NCBI GenBank assembly: GCA_964510205.1
Contig: CAZEBW010000012.1
Location: forward strand, 5,029-69,028
DNA length: 64,000 nt
Source of the DNA: an uncultured Anaerolineae bacterium
GTDB taxonomy: Bacteria; Chloroflexota; Anaerolineae; VGOG01
Direction: 5' to 3'
Made by a program: the position numbers and the translations under genes. This document shows positions 3,835-41,006 of this stretch, piece after piece. Every line of letters begins with the position of its first letter. Position 1 is the stretch's first letter. The notes beneath the pieces were generated by a model that searched no databases, was not told the DNA's origin, and saw only the letters and a list, made by a program, of their open reading frames with translations.

Positions 3835-4330
3835 AGCGTGAAACGTTTGTGAGGACCGACCTTAGCGCATTACTGGAAATCCGAGCGGAGAGTCCGAAAC
3901 GATCGTGAGACCAGTCCTTAGCGAGATACGAAAGCACCCAGGCGAGAGTGTGAAACGATCGTAAGGCCAGTCATTAGCGCGTCACCAACAATCCGAGAGG
4001 AAAGCGTCAAACTATCGTCAGGATCGTCCTTAGAGAGCCACGAGAAGTCTGACGAAAGAGCGTGAAAGCACTGTGAGGATCGTCATTAGCGCGTTACATG
4101 ACGTCTCACGAAAGCGCGTCAAACCATCGTGAAGATCGTCCTTATCGCGTTCCCACCCGTCTGCGAGGAGAGCGTGAAGAGATCGTGAGAATCGTCATTA
4201 GCGCGTTACGCAAAGCCTGACGAAAGAGCGTTGAAGCACTGTGAGGACCGATACTCGCGCGTTAGGGCCAGTCTACGAGTACAGCGCGAAATGATCGTCA
4301 AACCAGTCATTAGCGAGCCAATACAAGGTC
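3835..4330. repeat. degenerate tandem repeat, about 56-bp period, about 9 copies
   Basis: conserved core GAGCGTGAAAC(G)ATCGTGAGGAxCGTCxTTAGCGCG alternating with about 20-bp variable segments. Confidence 0.6.
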
Positions 4331-8300: not shown

Positions 8301-10932
8301 TGAATCACTGGTTTCAGTCCCCCGAAGGGGATTCGTCGTTTTTCTACCTGCGGCCTGTGGGTAGCCATGAACACCAAGGGCCAAGTTTCAGTCCCCCGAA
8401 GGGGATTCGTCGTTTTTCTACTGGAGACAAAGAGCGCAGAACGTGGCTCAAGTGGACGTGTTTCAGTCCCCCGAAGGGGATTCGTCGTTTTTCTACTATG
8501 GGCACGGGAGCGAGACCATAACGGCCAAGAACCGTTTCAGTCCCCCGAAGGGGATTCGTCGTTTTTCTACCCATGACCAGGCTAATCACGTCTTTCTCAG
8601 AAACCGAGTTTCAGTCCCCCGAAGGGGATTCGTCGTTTTTCTACTATACTTAGTCAGGGCAGACAGTTATCTGTCCCTGAGGTTTCAGTCCCCCGAAGGG
8701 GATTCGTCGTTTTTCTACTCAAGGCCGCGGTCGCCGCAATCGAGAACGAACGCCGCGAGTTTCAGTCCCCCGAAGGGGATTCGTCGTTTTTCTACGCAGT
8801 CACAGGCGAGGGTCTGCCGCAACTGCGCGATAGATGTTTCAGTCCCCCGAAGGGGATTCGTCGTTTTTCTACCCGAGTTGCGAGGCGGCCTGGCGGTTTG
8901 GTAGGCAAGAGGCCAAGTTTCAGTCCCCCGAAGGGGATTCGTCGTTTTTCTACTAGACTACTACGAGGGCCTGGACTATCTCTATGAGGTTTCAGTCCCC
9001 CGAAGGGGATTCGTCGTTTTTCTACGGAAGTTTGCTGGCTCCGCATCAGCGCCTGGGGTAGACTGTTTCAGTCCCCCGAAGGGGATTCGTCGTTTTTCTA
9101 CCTGGCAACGCTTCAACTCTGGTCTGAGAGGCGGCATCCATCGTTTCAGTCCCCCGAAGGGGATTCGTCGTTTTTCTACACGATGAAGAGTCTGGCCGAT
9201 ACGGGGAAGGGCTACTTCGTTTCAGTCCCCCGAAGGGGATTCGTCGTTTTTCTACACGCCTTATCAACGAAACACCCGGTAGGCTAGGCATTTGGTTTCA
9301 GTCCCCCGAAGGGGATTCGTCGTTTTTCTACTTGCTTGACTTGCGTAAGGCGGAGCGGCTGGCGGATCGTTTCAGTCCTCCGAAGGGGATTCGTCGTTTT
9401 TCTACCCAGCACGCCTCCTGGGGCACTGTAGCGCGCTCCACGTTTCAGTCCCCCGAAGGGGATTCGTCGTTTTTCTACGGGTTGGCGCGTGTGTTGAGGG
9501 GGGAACATACCTCGAGTTTCAGTCCCCCGAAGGGGATTCGTCGTTTTTCTACGATATGCGAAGATCCGGCGAGGGCAGGGAAACGACTGCGCGTTTCAGT
9601 CCCCCGAAGGGGATTCGTCGTTTTTCTACCCCCGCTCGGAGCACACAGTTGGCCCGTTGTGTGGGGTTCGGGTTTCAGTCCCCCGAAGGGGATTCGTCGT
9701 TTTTCTACGCAAGCGCGGGGCTACGCTTTCGCAAGACGACAAACGCGTTTCAGTCCCCCGAAGGGGATTCGTCGTTTTTCTACGCAGTATCACCTCAATC
9801 TCCCAACCAATCTTTACAAGTTTCAGTCCCCCGAAGGGGATTCGTCGTTTTTCTACCTATACATAAAAATCAGACTACACAAAGGAGAATAAAAGTTTCA
9901 GTCCCCCGAAGGGGATTCGTCGTTTTTCTACGCTGATGACAAAGAAGAAGCTCATCGATCTGGAGAATAGACAACGTTTCAGTCCCCCGAAGGGGATTCG
10001 TCGTTTTTCTACTGTTAAGAGATGACTTTTGTGTATGAAGTAAAGGTTACGGTTTCAGTCCCCCGAAGGGGATTCGTCGTTTTTCTACTATCCAAGATCC
10101 AGAGGAAACAGCAAAACTGCAAAGTTTCAGTCCCCCGAAGGGGATTCGTCGTTTTTCTACTAGACCGGGAGGAGGTCCGGAAGGTCCTCTACCACAGCAA
10201 CAGGTTTCAGTCCCCCGAAGGGGATTCGTCGTTTTTCTACTAGAAGCTGCTCTCTGGGCTCTGCTCGCTAAGCTCTACGTGTTTCAGTCCCCCGAAGGGG
10301 ATTCGTCGTTTTTCTACCTAGCAAATGCCCAGTGGCATAGGGGTCAGTTGGATAGGGTTTCAGTCCCCCGAAGGGGATTCGTCGTTTTTCTACGTGGTCC
10401 AAGGCTGGCACGCCGCCCATGAGTGGTACTCCTCGTTTCAGTCCCCCGAAGGGGATTCGTCGTTTTTCTACGCGAGGTCACGGCTACAATAAGGGCAAGT
10501 TCTGGTCATATGCGTTTCAGTCCCCCGAAGGGGATTCGTCGTTTTTCTACGATTGACGAGGCCAGCGATCTACACGGGAACGTCTTGTTTCAGTCCCCCG
10601 AAGGGGATTCGTCGTTTTTCTACCAGGAAAGGAGAGAACAGTGAAGAACGATCTCGGTACTATCGTTTCAGTCCCCCGAAGGGGATTCGTCGTTTTTCTA
10701 CGGGTTTACACTCGTGGGATGCGGGAGAGCGAGACCTTCTGGTTTCAGTCCCCCGAAGGGGATTCGTCGTTTTTCTACCTGAAGCAGCTACTGGTTCCAG
10801 CAACCCGGGTATTGTGCCTGGTTTCAGTCCCCCGAAGGGGATTCGTCGTTTTTCTACGAGGCGTCTCGCTGGACGAGGAGGATGACCAAATTGAGGTTTC
10901 AGTCCCCCGAAGGGGATTCGTCGTTTTTCTAC
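5333..10932 (-). CRISPR. CRISPR array: 74 repeats of 37 bp, 73 spacers of 35-50 bp
   Basis: repeat GTTTCAGTCCCCCGAAGGGGATTCGTCGTTTTTCTAC on the plus strand, enumerated at 5333, 5410, ... 10896; the first (5333) copy is degenerate (GGGGGCTCG), consistent with a trailer end; minus-strand repeat ends ...CTGAAAC, giving an 8-nt Cas6 5' handle; leader and cas genes lie on the 10.9-kb side. Confidence 0.95.
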
Positions 10933-11222
10933 TGCTCTCTCCTGCTCCCGGTAGGGCGTAAACCCCACTTGGTCACCACTGCAATGCTCATTTGTCCCAT
11001 GTAGACACCTCCTTTTTGGGCTGGGGCCCCACTCGCGCCCCACTTTTTCGAAATCCGAGCATCGCCACATACCCCAAAAACCAGGGGGATGCTCGGTTTT
11101 CTCACTCCACTTTCTCTATATCTGCCACTGTGTTCAGCTCCACCCACTACCGATAGTGGGTGGAGGTCTCCTTTTTCCGAGCATCGCTAAAACACCGCCT
11201 ACCCCCCTCGATGCTCGGATTT
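10933..11222 (-). promoter_or_regulatory. CRISPR leader with two similar hairpin-forming elements
   Basis: AT-richer region between the last repeat and the cas2 stop; two copies of CCGAGCATCG-N22-CGATGCTCGG (about 11055-11097 and about 11177-11219) plus a CCCACTACCGATAGTGGGTGG hairpin. Confidence 0.5.
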
Positions 11223-11510
11223 TCACACTACGATGGCCCCAGGTTCCTCGTGCAGCACCTCTACCCCGCTGGTGACCTCTGTCTGGCGCACACACCCGGC
11301 GCAAAGGTAATAGTACCGCACTCTGTCTACCCTCGGCCTGATTACTCTGGCCGTGGCCTTCTTCATCCGCCTCAGTTCCTCCTTGTCCAGCAAGCACTCG
11401 AACACGCTGTACTGCACCGGCGAACCGTAGTTCAGCAGGGTGTTGTGCAGCTTCGTCCGCCGACGATCGTTGGAGATATCGTAGACTACAAGTACGAACT
11501 GCTTGCCCAT
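11223..11510 (-). CDS. cas2: Cas2
   Basis: MGKQFVLVVYDISNDRRRTKLHNTLLNYGSPVQYSVFEC matches the Cas2 signature; ATG at 11510 chosen over the upstream GTG ORF start. Confidence 0.85.
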   Translation of the reverse strand: MGKQFVLVVYDISNDRRRTKLHNTLLNYGSPVQYSVFECLLDKEELRRMKKATARVIRPRVDRVRYYYLCAGCVRQTEVTSGVEVLHEEPGAIVV

Positions 11511-11602
11511 AGTATATCTCGATCCAATCAAGATGGCAAACATGCAAAACGTGAAACGTGAGACGTAAGACGCGAGGCGTGAAACCCAGGGCCTGGAACG
11601 TT

Positions 11603-12598
11603 CTATTTGGCTAAGAAAGGCAAGTAGACTTCTGCTTCCCCCTCGATCACCTTGCGCATCAGACGGGCCTGTACCTCGAAACACTTCTGGTAGGTCAACC
11701 GCCGCCCGGCTAGAGGATGGATGACCTCGGTCTGCAAGCGGTCCGTGTACTGGCTCAAGAATTCCCGTAGACCCGAACGCCGCAGGAGCACACCCCCCTT
11801 GTCACCAGGCCGGAAATCGTCCGGCGTCAATATCCGCTTGTTCACCACCGTCAACACCACCGAGTTCACGATCACACTGCGGAATTCCTCCACCAGGTCC
11901 AAAGCCAGCGCGGGGCGACCGTATTTGTCAGCGTGAAAGAAGCCGTCGTACGGATCCAAGCCCACTACTTCCAGGGCCGTCATCATGTTGTGCCCCAACA
12001 GAGTGTATCCCAGGCTCAGCATGGCGTTCACCGGATCGCCTGGTGGCCGCCGCACCCGCTTCTCAAAACCCCACTCCGCTGGCATCGCCTGACGGAACAC
12101 CTGGAAGTAGGCTCGCGCACCCACACCCTCCAGCCCACGGAGGGTGCCCAACTCCGGCGCGTCATCCACTTGCTTGATGGCCGATGCAATCTGCTCGATG
12201 GTTCCATCGTCTATCTCCGCATGATCCCGACACAGCCGCCGCGCCAGGGTGCGCTCGTTACGCAACTTGCCCCCCACGATGGCCCGCCCTATCTCCAGGC
12301 AGAATCCGTCGTCCAACGCCCGCTGGTACTGCTTGTGCCGCAAGGGGATGTTCTTGGCCATCGGCGGCGTCAGCCGTCCGCGCAAGGTCCCGCTGCGGCT
12401 GACGAAGGCCAGCTCGATACCGGCGTCCAGCAGAGCCAGCAAAGCCGGCGTGGTGGCCCCCGTCCAACCCACCAGTACCACGTCCGATACCCGACTCAGA
12501 GGCACCCGCAGCAGGACCTCGTCCTCTTTGGTCACCAACAAGCGGCGATATTCTTTCTCGATCCGCGCCCCTTGCTCGGTCACGTACAACGTCGCCAT
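11603..12598 (-). CDS. cas1: Cas1
   Basis: NAMLSLGYTLL...GLDPYDGFFH...ALALDLVEEFR Cas1 motifs; start MATLYV at 12598 (the ORF extends to 12697). Confidence 0.9.
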   Translation of the reverse strand: MATLYVTEQGARIEKEYRRLLVTKEDEVLLRVPLSRVSDVVLVGWTGATTPALLALLDAGIELAFVSRSGTLRGRLTPPMAKNIPLRHKQYQRALDDGFCLEIGRAIVGGKLRNERTLARRLCRDHAEIDDGTIEQIASAIKQVDDAPELGTLRGLEGVGARAYFQVFRQAMPAEWGFEKRVRRPPGDPVNAMLSLGYTLLGHNMMTALEVVGLDPYDGFFHADKYGRPALALDLVEEFRSVIVNSVVLTVVNKRILTPDDFRPGDKGGVLLRRSGLREFLSQYTDRLQTEVIHPLAGRRLTYQKCFEVQARLMRKVIEGEAEVYLPFLAK

Positions 12599-12717
12599 TG
12601 GGCGGCCCTCATGTTCGAGGTTGGGCAAGGTCTCTGACCGCAGCTCCTCGTAGCGCCAGCCTGAAGAGCTGATGCCGAGCGAGGTTGCCAGCGCCACCTG
12701 TTCACGGCGGCGTGTAT

Positions 12718-13638
12718 TTACTCGTACCCGTCCGGCACATAATCGTAGAACAAGTAAGGGTCGAAATCCCCCTTGACCTCGATGCGTTTATTCTCGCACA
12801 AGAAGCTGTAGGTGTCCCGATAGAAATGCACCCCCAGGTAGTCAAATCCCTCGTCGAAGTGAGTGATGGCCGTCTTGTGCGGCTCCAATTGCAGCTTCAA
12901 CCCAGCCAGGATGCGCTCCGTGTCTCGCCAGGACGCCTCCACTTCGTCCCGGTCGGCACAGAAGACACAGAAATCATCAGCATACCGCACCGGCCGATAG
13001 CCTTGCTCTGTGAGTCCCACGTCCAGACGATGCAAGTAGATATTGCACCATAGAGGCGAGATCACCGCTCCCAGTGGGATGCCCACCGCCCGCTCCGGGT
13101 CGCGCCGGCCGATCCGCAGCCACTGCTCCATTAGCCGCAGCACGACGGGATCATCCACCTCCTCCTGCACGAACTCTATCAGCAGGCCGTGGTCCAGGCT
13201 GTCGAAACATTCATCAATGTCGCCATCGAGCACATATTGCCAGCCCGCGTCGCGGTGGTGGAGGATGGCCTGCACCGCGTCGCGCAGCCCCCGCCCCTGC
13301 CGATAGCCGGTGCTGCAATCGAGAAAATGACGGTCGAAACGATCATCCAGCACCCGCAGCACGGCCCGCTGCAGCACGCGGTCGGTCACCGTCAGGATGG
13401 ACAACTGACGGAGTGAGCCATCGCGCTTGGGCACGTAGAAACGGCGCAGCCGCCGTGGACGGTAGGTATTGGCCCGCACCGCCGCCGCCAGATTGACCAG
13501 CCGCTCTTCCCACCTCCTCCGCCAGCGCTTGACGCTCACCTCGTCAATGCCCGCTGCCCCCTTCTTCCGCGCCACCTCTTCCCAGGCCTCCCGCATGTTC
13601 TCCGCTTGCAAAACGCGATCAATCAACCTCTTGGTCAT
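12718..13638 (-). CDS. group II intron-like reverse transcriptase, CRISPR-associated, not fused to Cas1
   Basis: RT motifs including RYADDFCVF (YADD); N-terminal RT domain 0-like region; sits directly upstream of cas1. Confidence 0.9.
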   Translation of the reverse strand: MTKRLIDRVLQAENMREAWEEVARKKGAAGIDEVSVKRWRRRWEERLVNLAAAVRANTYRPRRLRRFYVPKRDGSLRQLSILTVTDRVLQRAVLRVLDDRFDRHFLDCSTGYRQGRGLRDAVQAILHHRDAGWQYVLDGDIDECFDSLDHGLLIEFVQEEVDDPVVLRLMEQWLRIGRRDPERAVGIPLGAVISPLWCNIYLHRLDVGLTEQGYRPVRYADDFCVFCADRDEVEASWRDTERILAGLKLQLEPHKTAITHFDEGFDYLGVHFYRDTYSFLCENKRIEVKGDFDPYLFYDYVPDGYE

Positions 13639-13768
13639 TGGTCCTTGCTCAGATAGATGGTCCTTGGTCAGATGGTCGGGTGGTCATTTGGTCATTGGGA
13701 TTTGGTCATTGGTCATTTCCCTCGTTCCTCATTCCTCGTTGCCCCGTTGCCCTGTTATCCCGTTACCC

Positions 13769-14557
13769 TCACCTTGTCCCTTGAACCCTCGTCTGCCCCA
13801 ATCCCATAGTCGTCTTGTGCCCCGTGCCGCAGTAGAAAGCGTAGGCGGCCAGGGTGTGCAGCAGGCGCAGCCAGTAGGGATCGCGGCGCAGGGCGCGAAA
13901 GGAGCAGCGACCCACGAAGCCGATGAACGTAGCCGGCCCGAAGCGCACCACCCGGCTCCTCAGCCGATAGCGGCTCACGCCCACGCACTCCTCGGCGAAA
14001 CGCTTCAGATCGGGATGCAGCGACAGCGGGGCGAAGGTGTTCCACTTGTTCAGCCAGTGGTCGAATACCAATCCCGGCAGCGGGAAGGGCTGATGCTTCC
14101 CTTGGGAGCGAAAGGTGGTCGGCGTGGCGAACTCCAGGTTCAGCCACGGTGGGGGATCCTCTGCTCCCAGCAGGTGGCCCTGGGCCAGGGCCTCGTAACT
14201 CGTCTGCCCGGCCCAGGCATGATCCGTCCCGTCTGCCGTGGCCCCCGCCACCTGGAACAATTGATCGGCCAGCATCAACGTGTTGGGCAGATTGGGCAGT
14301 ATTTGCTCCTCGAGTATGGCGGCCACTTCGGCCGTCAGCGCGGTCAGGCGCAACCAGGGCTGCTGGCTGTGACGCTGCTCGGCCCGCAACGCCACAGTGT
14401 AGGGTCTCAGTCCATTACCCTCGTGCAATGTCGCTGCCAGGGCAGGATCTGCCGCCTGTGCTTGATCCAGAAACCAGGCCTGGGTCGCCCGTCCCAGGTC
14501 TGGCCGCTGTTCATCCGCCTCAGCAGCCTGCAATTTGATCACCGCACTAACCAGCAT
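13769..14557 (-). CDS. cas6: Cas6 endoribonuclease
   Basis: C-terminal glycine-rich loop GTGHKTTMGLGQ (GxGxxxxxGxG) and RAMP-like fold features. Confidence 0.75.
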   Translation of the reverse strand: MLVSAVIKLQAAEADEQRPDLGRATQAWFLDQAQAADPALAATLHEGNGLRPYTVALRAEQRHSQQPWLRLTALTAEVAAILEEQILPNLPNTLMLADQLFQVAGATADGTDHAWAGQTSYEALAQGHLLGAEDPPPWLNLEFATPTTFRSQGKHQPFPLPGLVFDHWLNKWNTFAPLSLHPDLKRFAEECVGVSRYRLRSRVVRFGPATFIGFVGRCSFRALRRDPYWLRLLHTLAAYAFYCGTGHKTTMGLGQTRVQGTR

Positions 14558-14618
14558 CCAGAATCTCCAGCCTCAGGATGTCAACGCCCCCGTCGGATAC
14601 GTTGTTCAGGCATGTTTG

Positions 14619-15788
14619 TCAGAAGAAGGTGTCTGAGAGCTCAGGGTCGTCCTTTGCCAGCCACAACCTCTCTGCCACCTCCCCCATCTCCAGTTCCTCC
14701 AGCCGACCCTCGATCTCTTCCAGCTTCTCCCACACACTGGTCCCTTTCGGCACCCAGCCCATCTTCCAGTCCAGGTCAGCGATGAGGCGATCTGGGCGCA
14801 TGGTCAGGAAATATCCCCAGTCCAGCGCCTCTTCCAAGTAGGAGATCAAACCGGTGGCCCAATCGTGGAAGGGTTCGCTCCCCGGCAGGAAAGCCCAGCG
14901 GATTTGGGCCACTGCCTCCAGCCGCGTGCCGACCACAACCAACTGGGAGCCACGGTGCAGCTTGAGTCGTTGCAGAAATACCTGCATGGGCTGACTTTTC
15001 CGCCCAGCCACCGCCAGTTGAGGGTAGGCTCGTATCTTCACCTGGCCGAAGCGCCGATGGGTCAGTCGCCAGAGCCATCCTCCTTCCCTGTCGGTCTCGC
15101 TTTCCATATCCACTGTCTGCGGCCACCACAGGCGCCACTCGTCTGGCCTCTGGTCGGCGTGCAGGAAGGGATTGTCGCACAGAGGTGGGGGCAGGTCACT
15201 GACGGACAATTGTTTCGCTGGTAAGTCCACTTTCCACCAGCCATAGGCCGCTTCGGGGCCCAGGGAATCCTCACCGTAGCGATGCAGGACGCACAGCAGT
15301 AGGTACTGCAAGAGATCGGCGTTGGTGGAGGCGATGAAGTGCTGAAAGGGAGTTCCTTGAGTAACAGCTTCACGCCATGAAGTAGCGAAGGCCTCTGTCT
15401 GCGGCGCGTTCTTGGGATAGCGGCGGGCGAAGGCTCGCCGGGCGTGTACCGTCACCTGGTACGAGCGGCGCTGGGCTACGCCGGGGCGGCCAGATGCAGG
15501 CCAGTGGTAGGGCAGCCAGACTTCGACGAGGGCGCGTCTGCTCTCCGTGCGACTGTAGAGGAGCGCCACGCCGAGCGTCAGAGTTAGGGTGATCAGCGCT
15601 CCAACGCTGAAGGCCAACCATTGCTGTCCCAGGGTTTCGCCGCCGGGCCACAGGGCTTCGTAAAGCCCACTGGCCAACAGGTTGAGAATCGTCCCCAGGG
15701 CCACCGTCACCAGCACCAGGGCCACCAGTTCCCCCCGTGAGCGGCGGATGGTCTCGATCTTGCTGTAAGGTGATCTACGGCGTCGCAT
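14619..15788 (-). CDS. uncharacterised membrane protein embedded in the cmr operon
   Basis: 389 aa; two N-terminal TM helices (LVALVLVTVALGTILNLLASGL, LAFSVGALITLTLTLGVALLY) then a soluble domain with no recognised motif; overlaps the upstream gene by 14 nt. Confidence 0.5.
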   Translation of the reverse strand: MRRRRSPYSKIETIRRSRGELVALVLVTVALGTILNLLASGLYEALWPGGETLGQQWLAFSVGALITLTLTLGVALLYSRTESRRALVEVWLPYHWPASGRPGVAQRRSYQVTVHARRAFARRYPKNAPQTEAFATSWREAVTQGTPFQHFIASTNADLLQYLLLCVLHRYGEDSLGPEAAYGWWKVDLPAKQLSVSDLPPPLCDNPFLHADQRPDEWRLWWPQTVDMESETDREGGWLWRLTHRRFGQVKIRAYPQLAVAGRKSQPMQVFLQRLKLHRGSQLVVVGTRLEAVAQIRWAFLPGSEPFHDWATGLISYLEEALDWGYFLTMRPDRLIADLDWKMGWVPKGTSVWEKLEEIEGRLEELEMGEVAERLWLAKDDPELSDTFF

Positions 15789-16680
15789 CGCTCACCGCTT
15801 CCCAGATGCCGTAGGGGCCGACGAACAAGGGGGGCACATCTCCCTCAAACCGTCCGCCTGGGGCCCAGGCAACAATCGGTTCAGAGACATCCTGACCAGC
15901 CCCACGCCGCACTCCCCCTCGCTGGCCATTGGCCCACTCCCGACCCACCACAGGTTCCAGCGGTCCTTGTACTGGCATGTGGACACTTTGCGACACCTTC
16001 AGGTGGGCGTGAAGAGTCCTCCCACTCAGGTCGCGCGGCCGTGGCCACCGGCTAGTCCCCACATTAGGGCCGACCCACTCGCTGTGTCGCACCATTCGCC
16101 CAAAGCCATAGCCCTGTTCTCCGCCGACAAAGAGTTCTGTCAGATAGCCCAAGATCGTGGCGTCGTCCAGGTCTGCTAACGGCGGTGGGGCCACTGAACG
16201 GTCCTGATCCAGGTACAGGTAGCCTTGCAGGTAGACCGGGCGAGCAGGAGGCTGGTCTGTTTGCGTCTGAGGAGCGATGAACTCGATCTCGTGCAGGGAG
16301 GCTTCCTCCGCCGTCCAGGTAGAAGCAGTCAAGGCCGTGCTGCCAAAGGAGCCGATGAAGCGGGCCTCAAAGTCGGCGGCCGGTAGATCGCCATAGTGCC
16401 AAGTTCCTTGCTCCAGTCGGGGGTAATAAGGTCCCTCGCCGGCCAGCTTCAGGTAGAAGTAACTGGCGATAACGCGATCACGGACATAATCGCCCACAGC
16501 GAGGTAGTCGGTGGGTCTTGGCTGTGCGTAGCAGGCCCGTGTCAGCCGGGCAGTGATCGCGCCCCACATATCCCGCCCCGGCAGGTAGTAGCGAGTGCGC
16601 TGGATGTTACCCAGCTTGCGATAGCCGATGTGCAGAGGTGATGAGAGGTGGTAGGTCAGTTGATAGCTGTGCCAAGCCAT
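15775..16680 (-). CDS. type III RAMP, Cmr3-like (Cas5 family), tentative
   Basis: LSSPLHIGY...YYLPGRDMWGAITARL plus C-terminal G-rich GGEQGYGFGRM; start MAWHSY at 16680 preceded by GAGGAG RBS. Confidence 0.5.
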   Translation of the reverse strand: MAWHSYQLTYHLSSPLHIGYRKLGNIQRTRYYLPGRDMWGAITARLTRACYAQPRPTDYLAVGDYVRDRVIASYFYLKLAGEGPYYPRLEQGTWHYGDLPAADFEARFIGSFGSTALTASTWTAEEASLHEIEFIAPQTQTDQPPARPVYLQGYLYLDQDRSVAPPPLADLDDATILGYLTELFVGGEQGYGFGRMVRHSEWVGPNVGTSRWPRPRDLSGRTLHAHLKVSQSVHMPVQGPLEPVVGREWANGQRGGVRRGAGQDVSEPIVAWAPGGRFEGDVPPLFVGPYGIWEAVSDATP

Positions 16681-16693
16681 GCTTCTCTCCTCA

Positions 16694-17059
16694 TCAAGGT
16701 AACGACCGCAGACCATAGCGGGCGTATATTAGAGTGCGCTCCACTAGCTGCTTGGCCAGGAGCAACTTCCGCAAGTCTTCAGTCATCTGTACGACCGCGT
16801 CGTCGTCGCTTCCCTCTGGTAATGGCGCACCGACGGTGTTGTGTCGCAGCAATGCCCTGAGCAAGCTCCATACATTCTTGGTTGGTTGGTCCAGATTGCG
16901 GTACTTCAAAAACAGGTAGAAGGCATAGAAGCCATCCTCTTGCAGTACTCCCAGGGCATTGTTCAGACGGTTTTCCAGGTCCTTGTTACGGGTGGAGCCA
17001 CTTAGCTCCACAATGCTATTCGCGCAATCGGCGCAATGGGCATCTAGGTTCGTCGCCAT
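16694..17059 (-). CDS. cmr5: small alpha-helical subunit, Cmr5/Cas11-like
   Basis: 121 aa helical protein between cmr4 and a RAMP gene; strong GGAGGAGG RBS. Confidence 0.5.
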   Translation of the reverse strand: MATNLDAHCADCANSIVELSGSTRNKDLENRLNNALGVLQEDGFYAFYLFLKYRNLDQPTKNVWSLLRALLRHNTVGAPLPEGSDDDAVVQMTEDLRKLLLAKQLVERTLIYARYGLRSLP

Positions 17060-17060
17060 T

Positions 17061-18083
17061 TCACACCTCCTCCAGATTCAACACTCGCAACCGGCCCATC
17101 CCCCGGGTGTTCATTCCTCCCACTCCCAGATGTTCCATCAGTGCCACTCCCTGCTCCACGTGTTGGCGTACCCAGGCGATGTCGTGGGGAATGGTGCGCA
17201 TCCCTTCGGTGGTCTGATCCCTGATTTGGAAGTGCTGCGGGTTGTTATAGACCACATCGAAGTAGAAAACTGTGGCCCTGGGCAAGGCCTCGTAGGTAAA
17301 AAGAGCCTTGTCGTCAGCAGCACCTGTTTCTGGGTCAATGGCTACCGAGGTACGCACTTCCAGATTGTCGTTCACCACCTTGCTGAACAGTTCATCGGAA
17401 AGCAGCACGAGCCGGTCAAAGACCTCGTCAAGCGCGGGATTGCCCGCCGGCAGTTCAGGCAGTGCATCGTGAATACTCCCATTCTCCAGATCATCCCCTG
17501 TCTGCAGCAGCAACCACCCCAGGTTCAGCCGGGTTAGCTGCTGGTTGGAGGCAGGGTGCAACGAAGGTGCTAGGGATACTTGGCCCGTCGACACTTGAGG
17601 CGGGTGCGCCATTCCCGCCCGGCCCAGGGTGCCAGGAGACGTGACCCAGACCGGCCCAACCATGGAGTGCACCGGAAAGAACAGCACCCGGGCATCAAAG
17701 AACTGAGCCATGCCCTGCAGGCTTTGCTGCGTGCGACCGTTGGAAAAGCCGAAGGACACACAGACCGGACAATCCGGGTGGCAGCAGTGCTCCTCGCCGA
17801 AGTCACCACCCTTGCCAGCGCAACTGACTGTCCTTATTTCGGGAAGGTCATTCGGCCCCCGCTCTACCTCCCGTCGGGTCTGATAGCGCCCGGTTCGCAT
17901 GGCCGTATAGGTCCGGGCTACTCCGGAGAGACTGCTGCCGGGGATCTTAGGCAGGTTGTCGCCCGGCTCGCGGATGATAGACAGATCCACCCGGCCCAGC
18001 CGGTACCCCCCGGTGCCCACGTGAATTGGATCCAGTGCCAAGGCATAGTACCGCTGGCTGTGAAAGATGTTTCCATTGCTCAT
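17061..18083 (-). CDS. cmr4: Cmr4 (Cas7 backbone RAMP)
   Basis: LDPIHVGTGG...IPGSSLSGVAR and C-terminal G-rich GVGGMNTRGMGRLRV; ATG overlaps the cas10 stop (ATGA). Confidence 0.85.
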   Translation of the reverse strand: MSNGNIFHSQRYYALALDPIHVGTGGYRLGRVDLSIIREPGDNLPKIPGSSLSGVARTYTAMRTGRYQTRREVERGPNDLPEIRTVSCAGKGGDFGEEHCCHPDCPVCVSFGFSNGRTQQSLQGMAQFFDARVLFFPVHSMVGPVWVTSPGTLGRAGMAHPPQVSTGQVSLAPSLHPASNQQLTRLNLGWLLLQTGDDLENGSIHDALPELPAGNPALDEVFDRLVLLSDELFSKVVNDNLEVRTSVAIDPETGAADDKALFTYEALPRATVFYFDVVYNNPQHFQIRDQTTEGMRTIPHDIAWVRQHVEQGVALMEHLGVGGMNTRGMGRLRVLNLEEV

Positions 18084-21061
18084 TGCTCTGCTCCTTTCTC
18101 TTTCAGGATTTGCATGTGCAATTCTAGACAATCAAAGAACAGGCCATCCAGCATGGCCTGGCGGAGCCCCCTGTAGGCGGGGCTCTCTGGTGTGTAGACA
18201 GAAAACTCCTTGCCCAGAACCTGGGTGACCAGTTTCTCATACGTTTGCCATTCATTACCCGTTCGTTCCTTCTCAGCCAGGCCCCATTCCTCGAAGCGGG
18301 TGGCCAGCAAGTCACGGATTCCGTGCAGCTTGGTAGTGGTCATGCCGGTCGACCAGCACCACTGCCAGATCTGCTCCATCCGGCGTGAGTCTTCCAGTAG
18401 GTAGGGGCGGGGACTGTGGCGTGGGCCGAAGAGCGGATGGGGGCGCCGGCCGGTCGCCTCGTCCAGACGTATGTCGAAGCGGCGGGCGGATGTATCCAGG
18501 AAGATGTACTCAAAGCGGGATGGATGGACCTGGATCTGCTCACGGGGAGATACGGAACTCAAAGAGCCCAGGTACCATTGATCGCTGATTTCTTCATCGC
18601 CCATTTTCAGGGCAACAAGCCATTCCACGCCGTTCTGGAAGACGATGCGGCGTTGATCACCATCGTCCATCACCTCTTGGACCGGCCAAGTTTGGCGTTC
18701 ATTCGGGAAGGCCAGCATCCGCCGTCCGGCATCCAGGACCGCATAGAGAGGGATGTGCCGGTCGAAGAAAACCAGCCCTAGGTGAATAGGCAACCGATCT
18801 CGCACCCGACCCATCTCTTCTTCATACCGACCGCGGATTCTACCGACTGCTGCCAGCGCCTGTGCCCCTGGCACTAACGCCATGAAGAGGAAAGGTTCCG
18901 TAAGCAGAGAGATGTAGGGCTTATAGGGTGTAGGGTCTGGCTCCGCCCCTGTGATGCGAAAATCACCGGCTTTGACACTGGCCCGACCATAGCCGGATGG
19001 TTCGTAGAGTGTCACCGGCCCTCGCAGCTTCCTGCCCCATTCGTCCGAGGATCCCCCCAAGGACTTCAACCTAGTGGCTGTGATCAGCTTGAGCCTGTCT
19101 GAATTCCATACTAAGGGCACGTCTCCGAAGGAATACCGAGCCTCGTAGACGTGAAATTTGCCGGGCAGGGCTGGTGGTTCCGGAGTCAATTCTAGCCGTC
19201 TTTCTTCTTCCCACAGCACCTGGTTGAGAATCTGAGTCTCTGCTTCTTGCCAGAAACGATGTGTGGTTTCCCATGTGCGGCGCAGGCGGGCAAAAGACGG
19301 GTTCTTGGGATGACCAGGGGCCGCCAGCAGGGAGCGGATGTAGCTCCCATCCAACCAGTTCTCCAGACCGAAGCGACCCACGACCAAAGCTACGCGGCCA
19401 TGTTCGTCCGCCACTTCGTCTATCCAGATTGTGCGACTCAAGAGGCCATCTTTGTTCCGAGCCCAATCTTGAGAACGACGACCACGCCGGGCCAGACACA
19501 CGCCGCACAGTTGGCGTTTTTGAGCCTTATCGGGGTCTCTGGCAAAGTTAGGCAGATCCGCTTCTACGTATCCCTGTGGCCGCACCCCGCAGATCGAGCA
19601 GACTTCGGCCCCCACCCGCTGCCGCCAACTCTGCCGGATGAGGCCGGGTTCGGCCCAGAGTGGGGTTCGTTGGGCCAGGAGCCCGCCTAGTTCGGTTGCC
19701 TGGCGGGAGGGTTTAGATAGTGGTATTGGCTGCAGTATCACCTCTCCCCGCAGGCGTTTGCGGAAGGCTTGCTGGATTGTGTCTTTGACTAGGGTGACGA
19801 TCACCAGCCCTTCATTGTCGCCGTCCAGGGCTGGCACCAGGAAGGCACTGCCATTCTCGTCGCGATAGATCTCGTTCCCCAGAGGGGAGATCACCTCTAT
19901 GGCCCGCTTCACATCGTTCAGAGCGTCCTCCAGGACAGCCTTGCGCCCCAACAGATCAGTGACGTGGTAAGCCTGTTCCAGATAGCCCAGGCCGTCGTAG
20001 CCCACTCGTAACAGCCGCCATTGGATGCTGTTAACCTCTGGGAATGTGTAGCTTGGGTTTCGCGTCTGTTCCAGCAGAATCTTGGCCAGGGCAGCCTTGT
20101 ACAGGCTGGCCACAGAGAAGGAGTGGTCCCACAAGGTCACGTCATTGGCGGCACGGCGGGTTTCGCCCAGGGCCCGGCGGAAGGCAACCTCGGTGAGTTT
20201 TCGTAACCCCTCGACCCACCCGTCTGCTGTTGGCCAGCCGTCGTAGAGGATCTCCTGCCAGAACTCAGGGGGCAACGTATGTCCGGCAGGCAATTTAGCT
20301 CGTTCTGTCCCGACACGCTGTAGGACGAGGGCCAGGTTATTGGCGTAGTTATGGCGCACTTGTTTCAGTTCGTCGGTTTTGATACGCAAGCTATCCGGCT
20401 CGTGGCCGAAGGCGGTGGCGATGCAGGTGTCGCCGAGATGTTGTTTAAGGCCACCTTTGTCAGCCCCGGCCTTGTCTACGGCCGAATCCGCACCATCACA
20501 ACCCTCAAATCCTGCCGTCAGAAGTTGCGTCGCTGGTCCGTGTACAGCGAGTAGCGGGGAATGATGTGCCTCGAGGAAATCACCTATGGTTCGTTTCTCT
20601 TCGGATGGCCAATGAAAGGTCAGGTGCAAGTCATCCAGCAATTGAAGAAGGCTGTCCGGCAGAAAGTCGTCGGGAACAAGAGCCTCTTCCCTGATAACCC
20701 GTCTACCCTCGGCATCGCTAATCTTGAGCCACAATTCATCCATTTGTTGCCAGATATGCCCCTTCGCGTGCCCCCGTTCTTCCCGGCTAACACCCTCATC
20801 TGGTAAACTCTTGGCCCAGTCTTGGACTTTCCGCCTGAATGCGGCTTCTACCTCCTTGCTGGTTACAGGATCGAGCGAATAGTAGCTTCTCATCGCTCGC
20901 CTCAGCACAAGGTGGTGCTCAAAGCCTAACTGTTTAGACAACTCAGCTTGAACAGCCACAAACTCCGCGCTCAACTTCCCCAGGTCGTGGATCAGCGCCC
21001 CAATCTCGGCCAGCAGGATCAGGGCGCGGTGCTGCTCCAAAGTGGCTAGTAGGTTACTCAT
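18080..21061 (-). CDS. cas10: Cas10/Cmr2 with N-terminal HD domain
   Basis: 993 aa; HD motif LIHDLGK; treble-clef CSICG...CGVCLARRG between the palm domains; the palm-2 region aligns but appears to lack GGDD (SLLTEPFLFMALVPGAQAL). Confidence 0.85.
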   Translation of the reverse strand: MSNLLATLEQHRALILLAEIGALIHDLGKLSAEFVAVQAELSKQLGFEHHLVLRRAMRSYYSLDPVTSKEVEAAFRRKVQDWAKSLPDEGVSREERGHAKGHIWQQMDELWLKISDAEGRRVIREEALVPDDFLPDSLLQLLDDLHLTFHWPSEEKRTIGDFLEAHHSPLLAVHGPATQLLTAGFEGCDGADSAVDKAGADKGGLKQHLGDTCIATAFGHEPDSLRIKTDELKQVRHNYANNLALVLQRVGTERAKLPAGHTLPPEFWQEILYDGWPTADGWVEGLRKLTEVAFRRALGETRRAANDVTLWDHSFSVASLYKAALAKILLEQTRNPSYTFPEVNSIQWRLLRVGYDGLGYLEQAYHVTDLLGRKAVLEDALNDVKRAIEVISPLGNEIYRDENGSAFLVPALDGDNEGLVIVTLVKDTIQQAFRKRLRGEVILQPIPLSKPSRQATELGGLLAQRTPLWAEPGLIRQSWRQRVGAEVCSICGVRPQGYVEADLPNFARDPDKAQKRQLCGVCLARRGRRSQDWARNKDGLLSRTIWIDEVADEHGRVALVVGRFGLENWLDGSYIRSLLAAPGHPKNPSFARLRRTWETTHRFWQEAETQILNQVLWEEERRLELTPEPPALPGKFHVYEARYSFGDVPLVWNSDRLKLITATRLKSLGGSSDEWGRKLRGPVTLYEPSGYGRASVKAGDFRITGAEPDPTPYKPYISLLTEPFLFMALVPGAQALAAVGRIRGRYEEEMGRVRDRLPIHLGLVFFDRHIPLYAVLDAGRRMLAFPNERQTWPVQEVMDDGDQRRIVFQNGVEWLVALKMGDEEISDQWYLGSLSSVSPREQIQVHPSRFEYIFLDTSARRFDIRLDEATGRRPHPLFGPRHSPRPYLLEDSRRMEQIWQWCWSTGMTTTKLHGIRDLLATRFEEWGLAEKERTGNEWQTYEKLVTQVLGKEFSVYTPESPAYRGLRQAMLDGLFFDCLELHMQILKEKGAEQ

Positions 21062-22343
21062 GGAGTACCTCCTCTCGCAACGCGGCAGCTAATCTATCGG
21101 CTACCCTGTCCAGGTCCGCCAGATCCACACGATCCGTCTCTTCCTGCAAGGGTACCATCTCCGGCTCCGACACGACAGCCGTCTCAGTTGGAGGTGGCGG
21201 TTCGCGCCAAGTGTGAGCTTCTCTGTCCCAATCCGGGTGTCGCTTACGCAGTCTCTTGTATTGGCTGGTGCGGCTTCTCCCCCAGTCGCTCTCGTCTAGC
21301 TCAGCGTTTGTCCAACGGGGAAAACCTTCCAACTGCATTCGCTGGACGAAATCAGCGATGTCTGCTTCTAGACTGTCATCCGAGTCCTTTGGTGCCGCTT
21401 CCTCTTGAGTCTCCTCGGGTGGCATCCGGCTCACTAAGGCATGAACACCCCAATAGAAGTCACGCACGTATGGCTTAGCCAGGCCGAAGCCGCTGGTCCG
21501 CTTGGCCGAAAAGCCCACGGTCCGAAACATGGCCTCCAAGCCTCCTGCTATTTGCTGCAGGTGATGACCTACCTCGGCTTTGTAGTCTGTCCAGGGTAAC
21601 CCCGCTCTATCAAAGGGTACGTACAGCAAGGAAAAGACGCCTCGTGCGCCAGCCGGCACGCATTCCAGGCTAAAGGGGTCCCGCCCGCTCCCACTCTCTC
21701 GATCATGTGGGTTGAGCATCTCCAACTCCAAGGCATCGAAGTGGGTGGGATAGAACCGTAAGCGTCCGGCGCGGAAATAGCCATCGGGCACAGTTCCTTC
21801 TGGACGTGGTGGCCCAAACAGCAAACAGAAGTCGTCATTCTCTTGGTCGCCATTTTGCCAGCGCATAGCTGCCCGCAGATTTCCTTTCCACCCGCTGCCT
21901 CCGAGCATCGGCACCTTGAAAGCCCACTCCTTGCGCAAGGGGTTGTCGTGAGGATAAAATGGTGCATCGTCCTTGCTGATGAAAGGCTCTTGTAGTGTGA
22001 ATCGGAATTGCAGAGCGAATGATCCCATTGGCAATGTCCCCAGCACACCGGCATCCAAGCGCGGCCGCAGCAGTCCCAGACAACGCAGACGTCTCTGCTC
22101 AGAGGCGATCAAGTCGCCAGTGTAAGGTGTAGGACCTTGCGTTCGATGAACTATTTCCCTGTAGTGTCTACGTTCTTTAGCCCAATCAGAATCCGGAAGT
22201 GAAGTGAGGGCCTGAATCTGGGACAGTAGCCTCAGTTGCCCATAGCGATCCCGGACTTCGCTGAAGGCGTCTTCTCGTCCTATCAGGGCATCAGCATCTC
22301 TCTCTCCCCTGATCACAAATGTAGCGTGCCAATCGTAGCTCAT
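21054..22343 (-). CDS. type III RAMP, Cmr6-like (Cas7 family), with C-terminal extension
   Basis: KVPMLGGSGWKGNLRAAMR (G-rich loop-type motif) and FGLAKP; start MSYDW at 22343 with AGGAGG RBS. Confidence 0.55.
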   Translation of the reverse strand: MSYDWHATFVIRGERDADALIGREDAFSEVRDRYGQLRLLSQIQALTSLPDSDWAKERRHYREIVHRTQGPTPYTGDLIASEQRRLRCLGLLRPRLDAGVLGTLPMGSFALQFRFTLQEPFISKDDAPFYPHDNPLRKEWAFKVPMLGGSGWKGNLRAAMRWQNGDQENDDFCLLFGPPRPEGTVPDGYFRAGRLRFYPTHFDALELEMLNPHDRESGSGRDPFSLECVPAGARGVFSLLYVPFDRAGLPWTDYKAEVGHHLQQIAGGLEAMFRTVGFSAKRTSGFGLAKPYVRDFYWGVHALVSRMPPEETQEEAAPKDSDDSLEADIADFVQRMQLEGFPRWTNAELDESDWGRSRTSQYKRLRKRHPDWDREAHTWREPPPPTETAVVSEPEMVPLQEETDRVDLADLDRVADRLAAALREEVLHE

Positions 22344-22354
22344 ATCTCCTCCTT

Positions 22355-23497
22355 TCACACTAGCAGGCTAGTCAAGAACGTCCCTACGTTTCCTATGCAG
22401 GATACCGTATCGCGGGATGAGTTGAACTCACGCCAGACAATGGAAGTCAAGTCCACCAATGGTGGAGCGCCGAAAACATCTCGCCAGAAAGCCGAGCTAT
22501 GCAACAACATGTGCAGATCGTTCAGGAATGCATCTCGATCGAAGTCCCGTCTATGTCGCGGCAGCCAGCCCCATACCCGGAAAGGCCACTGCCCGTCATC
22601 TGGATAAGCGCCCGAGATGTTTATTTTGGCTTTGCGACGTTGCCGGCCAATGTGCCCCCAAATGTGCCGTTGATTTCCCCAAGTGGCTGCAAAGGCATTG
22701 CTCCCGTAGCGAAGTTGGTTCTTCACCGCAGGTGCAATTGAAACAGATCCAGGGCTCCCTCCCCCCCATCGCTCCAGAGTGGTAGCATGAGCACCCAAAA
22801 GAGGACGCCTATCTGAATTTGTTCGCGTCCACCACTGGTCGGCAGCATCGGCCACCAGCCGGAAGCGGGCAAAGAAGAAATCGGTCAGGGACGGGAGCGG
22901 CCCCCTATACAATGTACCAGTCGAGTAGTGGGTCAGGAACTTAGCTAAGTCTACAGTGACCGGTTGATCATCCTTTTCGGCCTTGATCCTCACTACGCCG
23001 TAACCGTGCTGGGTTCGAGCTCCTATGCCTCCCCAGGTTGCGGCCAGTTGCATGGTTACCAGCACTCTGTTGGCTACATCATCTTGATCACCGCGTAGCA
23101 CGATCAATCGCCCGTTGACACCCGTGTCCTCTGTGGCGAGCCGACCGGCTCCATAGAACCAACCAGTTCTGCGGCCTGGGGGTTTGAATCTGCACCAATC
23201 TTGCTTATCCCGTTGGGGATAGGCGAGTTGCCCGGTATCCAGTTGCAGGCGAAACTTCCGCCCCCAGCCGGTGCAACCGAATAGATCGCAGGCCACACAA
23301 TGCTCCCGATCTGCACATTGGTTTCCTCCTGGCACCGTCGGGTCACATGCATCCTCCCCCAGCCCCCGCACAATGGCCTCGTACCACCACCGCAGGCTGC
23401 CGATGATGCCCGTCTCGTGCACGCGGTCGCAGGTGCCGTCCACCCCGCCCGTCCACAGCGGGGTCAATGTATGCAGCTTGATCTCCATAGACCTCAC
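22355..23497 (-). CDS. cmr1: Cmr1-like RAMP
   Basis: LTPLWTGG...GSLRWWYEA (Cmr1 WW signature) and CVACDLFGC zinc motif; GTG start. Confidence 0.7.
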   Translation of the reverse strand: MRSMEIKLHTLTPLWTGGVDGTCDRVHETGIIGSLRWWYEAIVRGLGEDACDPTVPGGNQCADREHCVACDLFGCTGWGRKFRLQLDTGQLAYPQRDKQDWCRFKPPGRRTGWFYGAGRLATEDTGVNGRLIVLRGDQDDVANRVLVTMQLAATWGGIGARTQHGYGVVRIKAEKDDQPVTVDLAKFLTHYSTGTLYRGPLPSLTDFFFARFRLVADAADQWWTRTNSDRRPLLGAHATTLERWGGGSPGSVSIAPAVKNQLRYGSNAFAATWGNQRHIWGHIGRQRRKAKINISGAYPDDGQWPFRVWGWLPRHRRDFDRDAFLNDLHMLLHSSAFWRDVFGAPPLVDLTSIVWREFNSSRDTVSCIGNVGTFLTSLLV

Positions 23498-24420: not shown

Positions 24421-25146
24421 TTACATTACATTCCGGGACAACTCTGATCCTGTTGGACAGAATTCAAGCAGGGGACACTCACTACATCGCGGATTTCTGG
24501 GCGAACAATAGTTCCTACCAAGAAGAACCATTCCAACATGCAAATCTCGTCTCAGATACTCGGGAATCTTCTCTTGGAGCTCGTCGGCTTGACGCTCCGT
24601 GAGATAGATGTCGCTAGGCGTCCATCCGAGTCTATGTGCGACTCTACGGCAGTGGACGTCTACGGGAAAGACGGCGCGATTGAGCGCATACATCAACACA
24701 CACCTCGCAGTCTTAATACTGACACCTGGCAGGGAAGTTAGAAACTTCTCCGCCTCCTCTATCTCCATCTGTTTGAGGGGTGCTAAAGTAACCCGTCCGT
24801 GTTTCTCTTTAAGCTCCGAAGCGATCTTCGTGATGGCATGCGCTTTTTTGTTGTGTAAGCCCCCCTGTTCAATAGTCTTTGCTACGTATTCTGGGCGGGC
24901 CTCCGCGATACTGTTCGCCGTCTTGAACTCGCGCCGCAGCGAGCGATAGGTTTCCTGGTAAACGTCGGGGGGGGTACGGGAAGAAAGGATGATGTAGAGC
25001 AACTCATTGAACGGGTTCTTCTTGTTGCCCAACGTCGGTCGCCCGAACTCTTGCACGAGGGCTTCTGTTATCTCCTCTACGTGAGGGTGGAAACAATTAC
25101 TGTCATTGTTCACGCTTCTGTCCTCAACGGCGAACAGGGTCTTCAT
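24421..25146 (-). CDS. endonuclease III family HhH-GPD DNA glycosylase (Nth/Mig-like)
   Basis: HhH LPGVSIKTARCVL with catalytic Lys, VDVHCRRV Asp motif, and 4Fe-4S loop C-x6-C-x2-C-x5-C (CSPRNPRCSECPLLEFC). Confidence 0.8.
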   Translation of the reverse strand: MKTLFAVEDRSVNNDSNCFHPHVEEITEALVQEFGRPTLGNKKNPFNELLYIILSSRTPPDVYQETYRSLRREFKTANSIAEARPEYVAKTIEQGGLHNKKAHAITKIASELKEKHGRVTLAPLKQMEIEEAEKFLTSLPGVSIKTARCVLMYALNRAVFPVDVHCRRVAHRLGWTPSDIYLTERQADELQEKIPEYLRRDLHVGMVLLGRNYCSPRNPRCSECPLLEFCPTGSELSRNVM

Positions 25147-25152
25147 GCGAAA

Positions 25153-25824
25153 CTATGTGGATGACCACTTCATCCAGGTGTCGAGCCTGTCCAAGTGAGA
25201 CTTGAGGTCGAATATCTGGTGCTCGGTGTAAAAGGTCCAACAATACCTTTTCCCGTATAGGCTCAGGAGCAGGCAAAGCACGAGGGTAACTGGATCGTCG
25301 GCAGTCAGCGGGAAGGACGGTTGTGTCTCAGGAAGCCAACTCGGACATTCGACAGGTGGGCCGTAGCCCAAGCTCCGAATGAGCTGTGCGTGATAGAAAT
25401 CGTGGCGACCTACCTCTTTCCTCTCGTCCCCGTGAGGGCTTTCCAGGCGAAATCCAACACCACAGAGGTTTCCCTCGTTCCCATCACTGGAGATCAACAT
25501 GACTTTCATTGTCATCTTCGTTTTCGTCTCACCCAGGTTGCACCGCAGCGACAGGACCGGAACGAACTCGGGGTTCTTTTCCAACCGTGGCAGGTACAAG
25601 ACCTTGCTTCGCTCGGAGAAATCTACCTCGACTGCTTCGGAATCCGGAAACAGATTGGCCAACTCTGTCTCCCCAATGGGGGGCAGACTATTAATGAGCG
25701 TGCTCCAGGCTTTCAAAGCCCCGGCGGACGGTTTCCACCTCGGCTGTTGACGAATCCAGGCATTTTCCTGTATTCGACATAACGCTTCGAATAGTTGGCG
25801 CAGCGTACCGACAGTTTTCCGCAT
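25153..25824 (-). CDS. hypothetical protein
   Basis: 223-aa ORF; no motif recognised. Confidence 0.4.
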   Translation of the reverse strand: MRKTVGTLRQLFEALCRIQENAWIRQQPRWKPSAGALKAWSTLINSLPPIGETELANLFPDSEAVEVDFSERSKVLYLPRLEKNPEFVPVLSLRCNLGETKTKMTMKVMLISSDGNEGNLCGVGFRLESPHGDERKEVGRHDFYHAQLIRSLGYGPPVECPSWLPETQPSFPLTADDPVTLVLCLLLSLYGKRYCWTFYTEHQIFDLKSHLDRLDTWMKWSST

Positions 25825-25845
25825 AGAGCAGCCACCAAGAAATAT

Positions 25846-29192: not shown

Positions 29193-29210
29193 GGCTGAAG
29201 ATGCTCCATA

Positions 29211-30266: not shown

Positions 30267-30355
30267 CTGTTAGGCTACCCCTACTCCAGTTTTCTTTGGC
30301 ATTCCGAATAAACGACTTACTTTGACTACAAGTATAACCCGCAGCGGCTTAGAAG

Positions 30356-33076: not shown

Positions 33077-33087
33077 GGAATTCCCCC

Positions 33088-33116
33088 TTGACAAATGTCA
33101 AAAAACTCGCTACAAT
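33088..33116 (+). promoter_or_regulatory. consensus sigma70-like promoter oriented antisense to the flanking genes
   Basis: TTGACA-17-TACAAT on the plus strand; the -35 lies in the palindrome TTGACAAATGTCAA; a 12-bp hairpin (about 33150-33182) lies downstream. Confidence 0.4.
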
Positions 33117-33197
33117 ATCAACGAATGATGGATCGGGAGTACCCGGTCGGGAGAGGAGAGTCTGCGTGACTCTCCTCTTGTCGTTAGAACGCGCCCG

Positions 33198-40980: not shown

Positions 40981-41006
40981 CCCCAGCGCCCGGCAAGGAG
41001 CCAGAG

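Follow-up and report, generated by a model that had tools for sequence, protein, structure and literature searches.

Of the older type III CRISPR-Cas subtypes, III-C is the least well understood. Published descriptions agree that its Cas10 keeps the HD domain and has lost the cyclase (PMC3150331, PMC6013697, PMC11229360, PMC12669027), so that it cannot signal, and that the subtype has no cyclase sites and no known ancillary effectors (PMC11229360); most of the loci described also lack arrays and adaptation genes (PMC12669027, PMC5541045). Here we describe a locus that shares the effector of these systems and carries further genes beside it. It lies within a 64,000-nucleotide stretch of DNA from an uncultured Anaerolineae bacterium of the Chloroflexota (GenBank contig CAZEBW010000012.1, positions 5,029 to 69,028; hereafter the window), in which eleven consecutive minus-strand open reading frames (ORFs) fill positions 11223-23497. 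These encode six effector proteins, a 389-residue membrane protein that we call TM389, a Cas6, a stand-alone reverse transcriptase (RT), Cas1 and Cas2, and a CRISPR array of 73 spacers follows. Taken as a whole, the locus is best explained as a complete and apparently functional III-C system with RT-aided adaptation and with TM389 as a partner of the effector complex, a reading to which we give a probability of about 80%.

The effector complex and its lost cyclase

The proteins of the window were compared with Pfam, NCBIfam (the TIGR models, at their curated cut-offs) and PADLOC, and its RNA with Rfam. It is the large subunit that sets the subtype. The product of cas10 (18080-21061) matches the Csx11 family TIGR02682 with 360.9 bits against a cut-off of 248.95, and the PADLOC Cas10c profile (CAS-III-C effector_LS) with 503.7 bits; III-C-specific PADLOC profiles match both this protein and Cmr5. 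It gives no match to Pfam Cmr2_N, mCpol or palm2, all of which match the Cas10 of a III-B locus with the same adaptation module (L015, discussed below), and a sequence search of the PDB with it returned no match.

In an alignment of the window protein with seven relatives (A2, 8 sequences), the N-terminal HD motif, IHDLGK, is retained, with H25, G28 and K29 invariant in all eight and D26 present in seven, the remaining relative having Asn. Four zinc-finger cysteines are likewise invariant throughout. The GGDD motif, in contrast, is replaced in every one of the eight sequences, by EPFL in the window and by ExPA or EP in the relatives, with EPA- as the family consensus. To place this position, we used a marginal match between the Cas10c profile and Pyrococcus furiosus Cmr2, limited to the Palm2 strand, in which 'FMALVP...HLGLVF..PL..VLDAGR' of Cas10c aligns with 'VLAILP...SAGILI..PL..ALEKAR' of Cmr2. 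In Cas10 proteins, GGDD comes immediately before the strand that reads 'VLAILP' in Cmr2, and since the residues before 'FMALVP' are EPFL instead of GGDD, the cyclase of this Cas10c is to be read as dead and the HD domain as retained. By its sequence, then, the locus is III-C and not III-B, because its large subunit is a Csx11/Cas10c protein with an HD motif and without the GGDD cyclase motif.

The first-pass annotation had read the locus as type III-B, a Cmr system with its RAMP genes in a non-canonical order. It was correct that the locus is of the Cmr type rather than the Csm type, as profiles for Cmr1, Cmr3, Cmr4, Cmr5 and Cmr6 all find their genes and profile classification placed none of the RAMPs in a III-A or III-D set. 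These same profiles are what speak for III-B, since they are common to both subtypes and the NCBIfam models carry the name 'type III-B'. However, the Cas10 is Csx11/Cas10c, above the NCBIfam cut-off, and not Cmr2; it lacks the Cmr2_N and palm2 matches of a true III-B system and has lost GGDD, and we therefore consider a III-B identity highly improbable. The gene order points the same way. A tblastn search of plasmids with Cas10c found pANACY.02 of Anabaena cylindrica PCC 7122, in which RefSeq annotates, in order, cmr1, a RAMP gene, Csx11, cmr4, a hypothetical gene whose product matches Cmr5, and a RAMP gene whose product matches Cmr3. The order in the window, cmr1-cmr6-cas10-cmr4-cmr5-cmr3, is identical to that of this reference locus and the same in every related locus examined; it appears to be the standard order of III-C systems.

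The likeness to described III-C systems (Csx11/Cas10c, MTH326-like, with A. cylindrica ANACY_RS28950-28975 as the annotated example) therefore extends to the same six effector genes in the same order, a Csx11-family Cas10, a lost cyclase motif and the lack of CARF or SAVED ancillary genes (PMC3150331, PMC11229360, PMC12669027). The difference is that the window has, in addition, a seventh conserved gene for a membrane protein, a cas6 of its own, an adaptation module of RT, cas1 and cas2, and an array with 73 spacers. Together with about 30 relatives, the locus represents a self-sufficient III-C lineage, with its own cas6, adaptation genes and long array.

Around cas10, the operon opens with cmr1 (22355-23497; TIGR01894, 62.2 bits against a cut-off of 28.65, and PADLOC Cmr1), followed by cmr6 (21054-22358; PADLOC Cmr6, 200.2 bits). 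Downstream of cas10 are cmr4, the Cas7 backbone RNase (17061-18131, with a probable start at 18083; TIGR02580, 106.2 bits against a cut-off of 87), cmr5, a Cas11 small subunit of the III-C type (16694-17059; PADLOC Cmr5, 100.7 bits, and the CAS-III-C small-subunit profile, 96.4 bits), and cmr3, a Cas5-group gene that had been listed as a 'Cas5-like RAMP' (15775-16716; PADLOC Cmr3, 230.8 bits). When Cmr4 is aligned with its P. furiosus counterpart, the Asp of 'GRVDLSIIRE' falls in the segment 'GVVDQPIQRE' of the latter, which holds the catalytic Asp. Judging from such conserved motifs, a Cmr1-Cmr6-Cas10c-Cmr4-Cmr5-Cmr3 complex would bind complementary transcripts, and cleavage of the target RNA by Cmr4 is expected because its catalytic Asp is conserved. 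From what is known of the family, the HD domain of Cas10c would be activated as a nuclease, and this would be the only enzymatic output of the large subunit, since the cyclase motif is lost; no cyclic-oligoadenylate (cOA) signal would be produced, and the locus contains no CARF or SAVED effector.

Two observations on the effector genes may be added. Cmr6 is long (434 residues), and its profile spans only residues 108-296, so that about 105 residues extend beyond it at the N-terminus and an acidic tail of about 135 at the C-terminus; its relatives have 348-479 residues. In a related III-C operon (L004, 3274-4217, and also L005), cmr6 and cas10c are separated by an inserted nucleotidyltransferase and HEPN pair of the MNT-HEPN toxin-antitoxin type.

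The reverse transcriptase, the adaptation module and the array

The RT (12718-13638) has 306 residues and adjoins cas1 without being fused to it, as had been claimed; it matches PF00078 with 111 bits and the PADLOC CRISPR RT profile with 285 bits, and its YADD motif is intact ('VRYADDFCVF'). On one side of it stands cas6 (13769-14557; PF10040, 74 bits; PADLOC Cas6d, 112.6 bits), and on the other are cas1 (11603-12697, with a probable start at 12598 that would give 331 residues; PF01867, 304.6 bits; TIGR00287, 294.7 bits) and cas2 (11223-11510; PF09827, 78.6 bits). The longest ORF of cas2 reaches 11684, and we take the ATG at 11510, which gives 95 residues; its homologues have 92-111 residues and their alignment begins at residue 1. 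The gap between cas6 and the RT gene holds a perfect 14-nt tandem duplication (ATTTGGTCATTGGG, 1.9 copies) at 13686-13712.

The origin of this RT deserves some attention, as it might be what is left of a retroelement, such as a group II intron, that came to lie beside cas1 and plays no part in adaptation. Its nearest solved relatives are indeed group II intron RTs: the best PDB match is the GsI-IIC RT, with 137 bits over fingers and palm only (3-262 of 428), compared with only 105 bits for the Cas6-RT-Cas1 fusion and 48 bits for G2L4, and source records name its homologues 'group II intron reverse transcriptase/maturase'. Nevertheless, against TIGR04416, the group II intron RT/maturase model, it scores 262 bits, below the cut-off of 300, and the alignment covers model positions 2-270 of 353, so that the maturase part is missing; the protein contains neither an X/maturase nor an endonuclease domain. 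The search for an intron RNA signature suggested by the first-pass annotation found none, either at Rfam gathering scores over the window or at E<=1 over 10900-15000. Among 727 matches to the RT family, the best 120 are nearly all stand-alone proteins of about 290-315 residues, and the sources named among these 120 are Chloroflexi or Anaerolineae. Compact RTs of about 300 residues, over a range of 35-89% identity, stand in the same (cas6)-RT-cas1-cas2 module in at least 14 loci. With no intron RNA, no maturase domain and this conserved placement between cas6 and cas1, and with YADD intact, the sequence marks the RT as group-II-intron-like and not as an intron maturase, and we regard a bystander remnant as a very unlikely account of it.

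The module is not tied to one effector. In Chloroflexota loci it serves both III-C and III-B effectors, and the pairing of an RT adaptation module with a III-C effector exists and recurs in the loci studied here. This combination is one that earlier surveys thought might not occur, Silas et al. having singled out III-C as a possible exception to the promiscuity of RT modules (PMC5513706). In the III-B case mentioned above (L015, 2111-12393), the same cas6-RT-cas1-cas2 module, with an RT 64% identical to that of the window, and the same repeat type stand beside a canonical III-B effector whose Cmr2 is of the active type and which comes with a STIV_B116-like gene and a weak SAVED gene, and without TM389.

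Among described RTs, that of the window most resembles RT-CRISPR clade 9 of Toro et al. 2017 (formerly G2L2, with the RTs of Roseiflexus and Chloroflexus; reference members WP_011957721.1, WP_012121172.1 and YP_001636958.1), which also comprises stand-alone group-II-intron-like RTs beside cas1 in Chloroflexi (PMC5541045, PMC8632793). As published, that clade consists of 3 records with 'no complete operons' (PMC5541045, PMC8632793), whereas the window RT is found in complete III-C loci, and in a III-B locus in the case of L015. The resemblance is one of taxon and architecture, and clade membership is to be taken as a lead only. If it holds, the window and its relatives would supply the complete operons that this clade of Chloroflexi stand-alone RTs lacked in 2017 (PMC5541045). 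A further comparison is with the RT-Cas1 fusions of the III-B system of Marinomonas mediterranea and the III-D system of Vibrio vulnificus, which have been shown to take up spacers from RNA and share the broad RT lineage, Cas1-Cas2 and a type III effector (PMC6821258, PMC5513706); in the window, the RT is a protein apart from Cas1, and the effector is of subtype III-C. By analogy with these systems, Cas1-Cas2 would insert new spacers at the leader-proximal repeat and the separate RT would let some of them be copied from RNA, which makes RNA-derived spacer acquisition plausible here.

A putative leader, assigned by position only, occupies 10933-11222 between cas2 and the first repeat. The array itself lies outside the eleven-gene block, at 5333-10932, and has the 73 spacers that had been counted. 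Its 37-nt repeat occurs 74 times, against 0 expected in shuffled sequence, and 69 of the 74 copies are identical; the most degenerate copy, with 2 mismatches, is at 5333, the leader-distal end. The spacers are 35-50 nt long, with a mean of 39. On the minus strand the repeat reads GTAGAAAAACGACGAATCCCCTTCGGGGGACTGAAAC; it contains a short CCCC/GGGG hairpin, after which comes ACTGAAAC. The arrays of ten related loci have 37-nt repeats of like design, all ending in ACTGAAAC and all in the orientation of their cas genes, and for this reason we take the array to be transcribed from the minus strand. Cas6 would then cut the transcript at the base of the CCCC-UUCG-GGGG hairpin and leave an 8-nt ACUGAAAC 5' handle, a product that fits the design of the repeat.

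A search of the whole array by blastn against 50,697 phage genomes, a search of IMG/VR for the three newest spacers as exact 28-mers, and a comparison of the spacers with the window itself all gave no match. About 1 kb past the leader-distal end of the array, at 3840-4263, there are degenerate tandem units of 56 nt and 112 nt (about 70-78% matches) that are unrelated to the CRISPR repeat.

III-C effectors, Chloroflexi stand-alone CRISPR RTs and Cas6 have all been described before. We found no description in the searchable literature of RT adaptation modules that are repeatedly paired with III-C, nor of complete operons for the lineage of this RT, and both appear to be new.

A conserved membrane protein in the effector operon

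The seventh gene of the locus (14619-15788) encodes TM389. The first-pass annotation had listed a membrane protein in the operon and otherwise passed over it; being conserved, it is the least ordinary element of the locus. The protein begins with MRRRRSPYS and has 8 Lys or Arg among its first 19 residues, followed by two strongly hydrophobic transmembrane (TM) helices; with such a basic N-terminus and two TM helices, both termini and the soluble domain should be cytoplasmic. An AlphaFold2 model built from a 37-sequence alignment (pLDDT 85.7, pTM 0.77) predicts helices at 7-46 and 53-77; after these come about 270 residues of mixed alpha/beta domain, as far as residue 345 or so, and then a long helix at the C-terminus. 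TM389 has no match in Pfam, NCBIfam or PADLOC and no sequence relative in the PDB, and tblastn against PLSDB plasmids found none either. With Foldseek, the best hits of the model were at E=0.16 in the PDB and E=0.1 in BFVD, and there was no match to CARF or SAVED.

The family is small. An exhaustive profile search of 1.84 billion proteins found 124 representatives, nearly all of a single architecture, the full-length ones mostly of 330-400 residues with the same layout; a word-indexed search with alignment A3 found 4 proteins only. Named relatives all come from Chloroflexota metagenome-assembled genomes (Anaerolineae, Anaerolineales, Ardenticatenaceae and Chloroflexia), and the relatives of the locus assign it, too, to a Chloroflexota genome. 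In the divergent half of the family (alignment A3), a single Trp is invariant and no polar residue is conserved family-wide, which disfavours an enzyme.

What ties the protein to the effector is its position. All the junctions from cmr1 to the TM389 gene overlap or nearly abut, and the start of the TM389 gene overlaps the stop of cmr3 by 14 nt, while the later intervals are wider, with 61 nt upstream of cas6 and 130 nt upstream of the RT gene when the longest ORFs are taken, and about 119 nt upstream of cas1 when its probable start, 12598, is adopted. From the tight junctions up to TM389 and the larger gaps after it, we take the gene to be a member of the effector operon; a scan for promoters and terminators gave a result at chance level. 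Among about 27 loci with sufficient upstream DNA, a TM389 homologue lies directly after cmr3 of a III-C operon in about 25, usually with an overlap of 1-14 nt. The placement holds at 27% identity (L014) and at about 15-25% identity among distant members, including those found by profile only (P0224 in L017, and P0296 in L018 and L019). The A. cylindrica III-C locus has no TM389 gene, and thus the protein marks one III-C lineage and not the whole subtype.

Identity to the window varies by module. In L007 and L016 the Cmr genes are 28-46% identical to those of the window, TM389 72-73%, RT 81% and Cas1 80-87%; in L026 the values are 77-86% for the Cmr genes, 52% for TM389 and 65% for RT; and in L021 Cmr3, Cmr5 and Cmr4 reach 83%, 88% and 97%, TM389 76% and Cas6 44%. 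This variation indicates recombination on both sides of TM389 with its position kept. It bears on the view that TM389 is a hitch-hiking passenger, unrelated to CRISPR interference, which would fit its lack of detectable homology to Cas or defence families and the existence of III-C loci without it. Against that view, its fixed place after cmr3 in some 25 loci survives such exchange and holds down to about 15-25% identity, and the family has few representatives, nearly all of one architecture; we hold a passenger to be improbable, if somewhat less so than the III-B and remnant readings set aside above.

The two exceptions to the cmr3-adjacent position are also informative. In L003 (5474-13223) and L038 (2632-7924) there are no cas genes, and the TM389 homologues, which are 56% identical, adjoin NACHT NTPases of about 1300 residues that are themselves homologous (34% identity over 933 residues). 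This is a second, independent and conserved association, here with a defence-type sensor, and the pattern fits a portable effector module.

Several known membrane proteins invite comparison. Cam1, Csx23, Cap1 and CorA of type III systems, and Csx28, which works with Cas13b, likewise combine N-terminal TM helices with a cytoplasmic domain and are encoded in or beside the effector operon (PMC12642688, PMC11229360, PMC12669027); the architecture of TM389 is comparable to that of Cap1, which also has a pair of TM helices, and of Cam1. In logic, the role proposed below would be comparable to that of Csx28, for which activated Cas13b suffices and no nucleotide signal is needed (PMC12669027, PMC12642688, PMC11229360). 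TM389 differs from all of these in having no CARF, SAVED, DUF4579 or CorA domain and no fold match, and from the type III proteins in that its Cas10 partner cannot make cOA or SAM-AMP; membrane damage by TM389 is, for its part, hypothetical. Our best guess is that TM389 is a signal-independent partner of the complex that, on target recognition, would damage or depolarise the membrane or tether the complex there.

The stronger form of this proposal is that TM389 represents a new class of CRISPR effector, switched on by protein contact instead of a nucleotide second messenger when the cyclase-dead III-C complex binds its target, in a module that NACHT/STAND sensors have borrowed. The NACHT link, together with the lack of conserved polar residues, favours a portable membrane-perturbing effector, and we put this forward tentatively, as the likeliest of several roles none of which we would call probable. 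If true, it would explain how III-C obtains an abortive-infection arm, and in any case TM389 offers a concrete candidate for how a type III system could act without cOA. The main alternative is that TM389 is not toxic and serves as a membrane anchor or localiser of the Cmr complex, for instance at the site of phage nucleic-acid entry. A gene that is last in the effector operon and translationally coupled to it, with no catalytic-looking conserved residues, in a system whose HD nuclease already supplies an output, would suit an anchor well. However, the NACHT-linked relatives are easier to reconcile with a portable effector than with an anchor specific to Cmr, and the free recombination of TM389 relative to the Cmr genes speaks against a specific docking surface, and we rate the anchor as possible and slightly less likely than the effector.

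Some considerations weigh against the overall interpretation of a functional III-C locus with RT-aided adaptation and TM389 as partner. The activity of the locus is deduced from sequence and no protospacer was found; RNA-derived acquisition has been shown for RT-Cas1 fusions only (PMC6821258 and work cited in PMC5513706). The proposed role of TM389 is drawn from gene neighbourhood and a predicted structure, and the argument from conserved residues says what the protein probably is not and offers nothing positive on its role. Independent recombination of TM389 and the effector genes is, moreover, awkward for a tightly co-adapted subunit.

A conserved membrane protein with no recognisable fold inside III-C effector operons appears to be undescribed in the searchable literature. 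A three-member 'Type III-C specific' cluster listed by Shah et al., C3a152 (Cylst_6373), may be an earlier record of it.

Surroundings of the locus

As a check for a mobile-element origin, we looked for relatives on viral contigs and found none. An 82-nt inverted repeat (94% complementary, with (CCTACACAC)n-like units) has its arms at 1794-1875 and 43694-43775, 41.8 kb apart, and brackets the CRISPR locus along with the other defence genes. Just inside the right arm is the end of a gene for a DnaG-type primase (40758-43598). The arms could be the ends of a mobile island.

Directly upstream of cmr1, a second defence cluster occupies 24421-36480 on the minus strand. Its genes encode an HhH-GPD/nicking-endonuclease-like protein, a GHKL-ATPase protein with a weak match to type II restriction endonucleases, a C5 cytosine methylase (DrmMII-like), a DUF1156 adenine methylase (HmaB-like), a short PglZ-like ORF and a DUF499 ATPase (HmaC-like). 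Farther along the window, at 49676-51480, a 456-nt unit is repeated 3.9 times with 87% matches, and because these units lie inside an ORF of 697 residues (49565-51658), the product is probably a protein with long tandem domain repeats.

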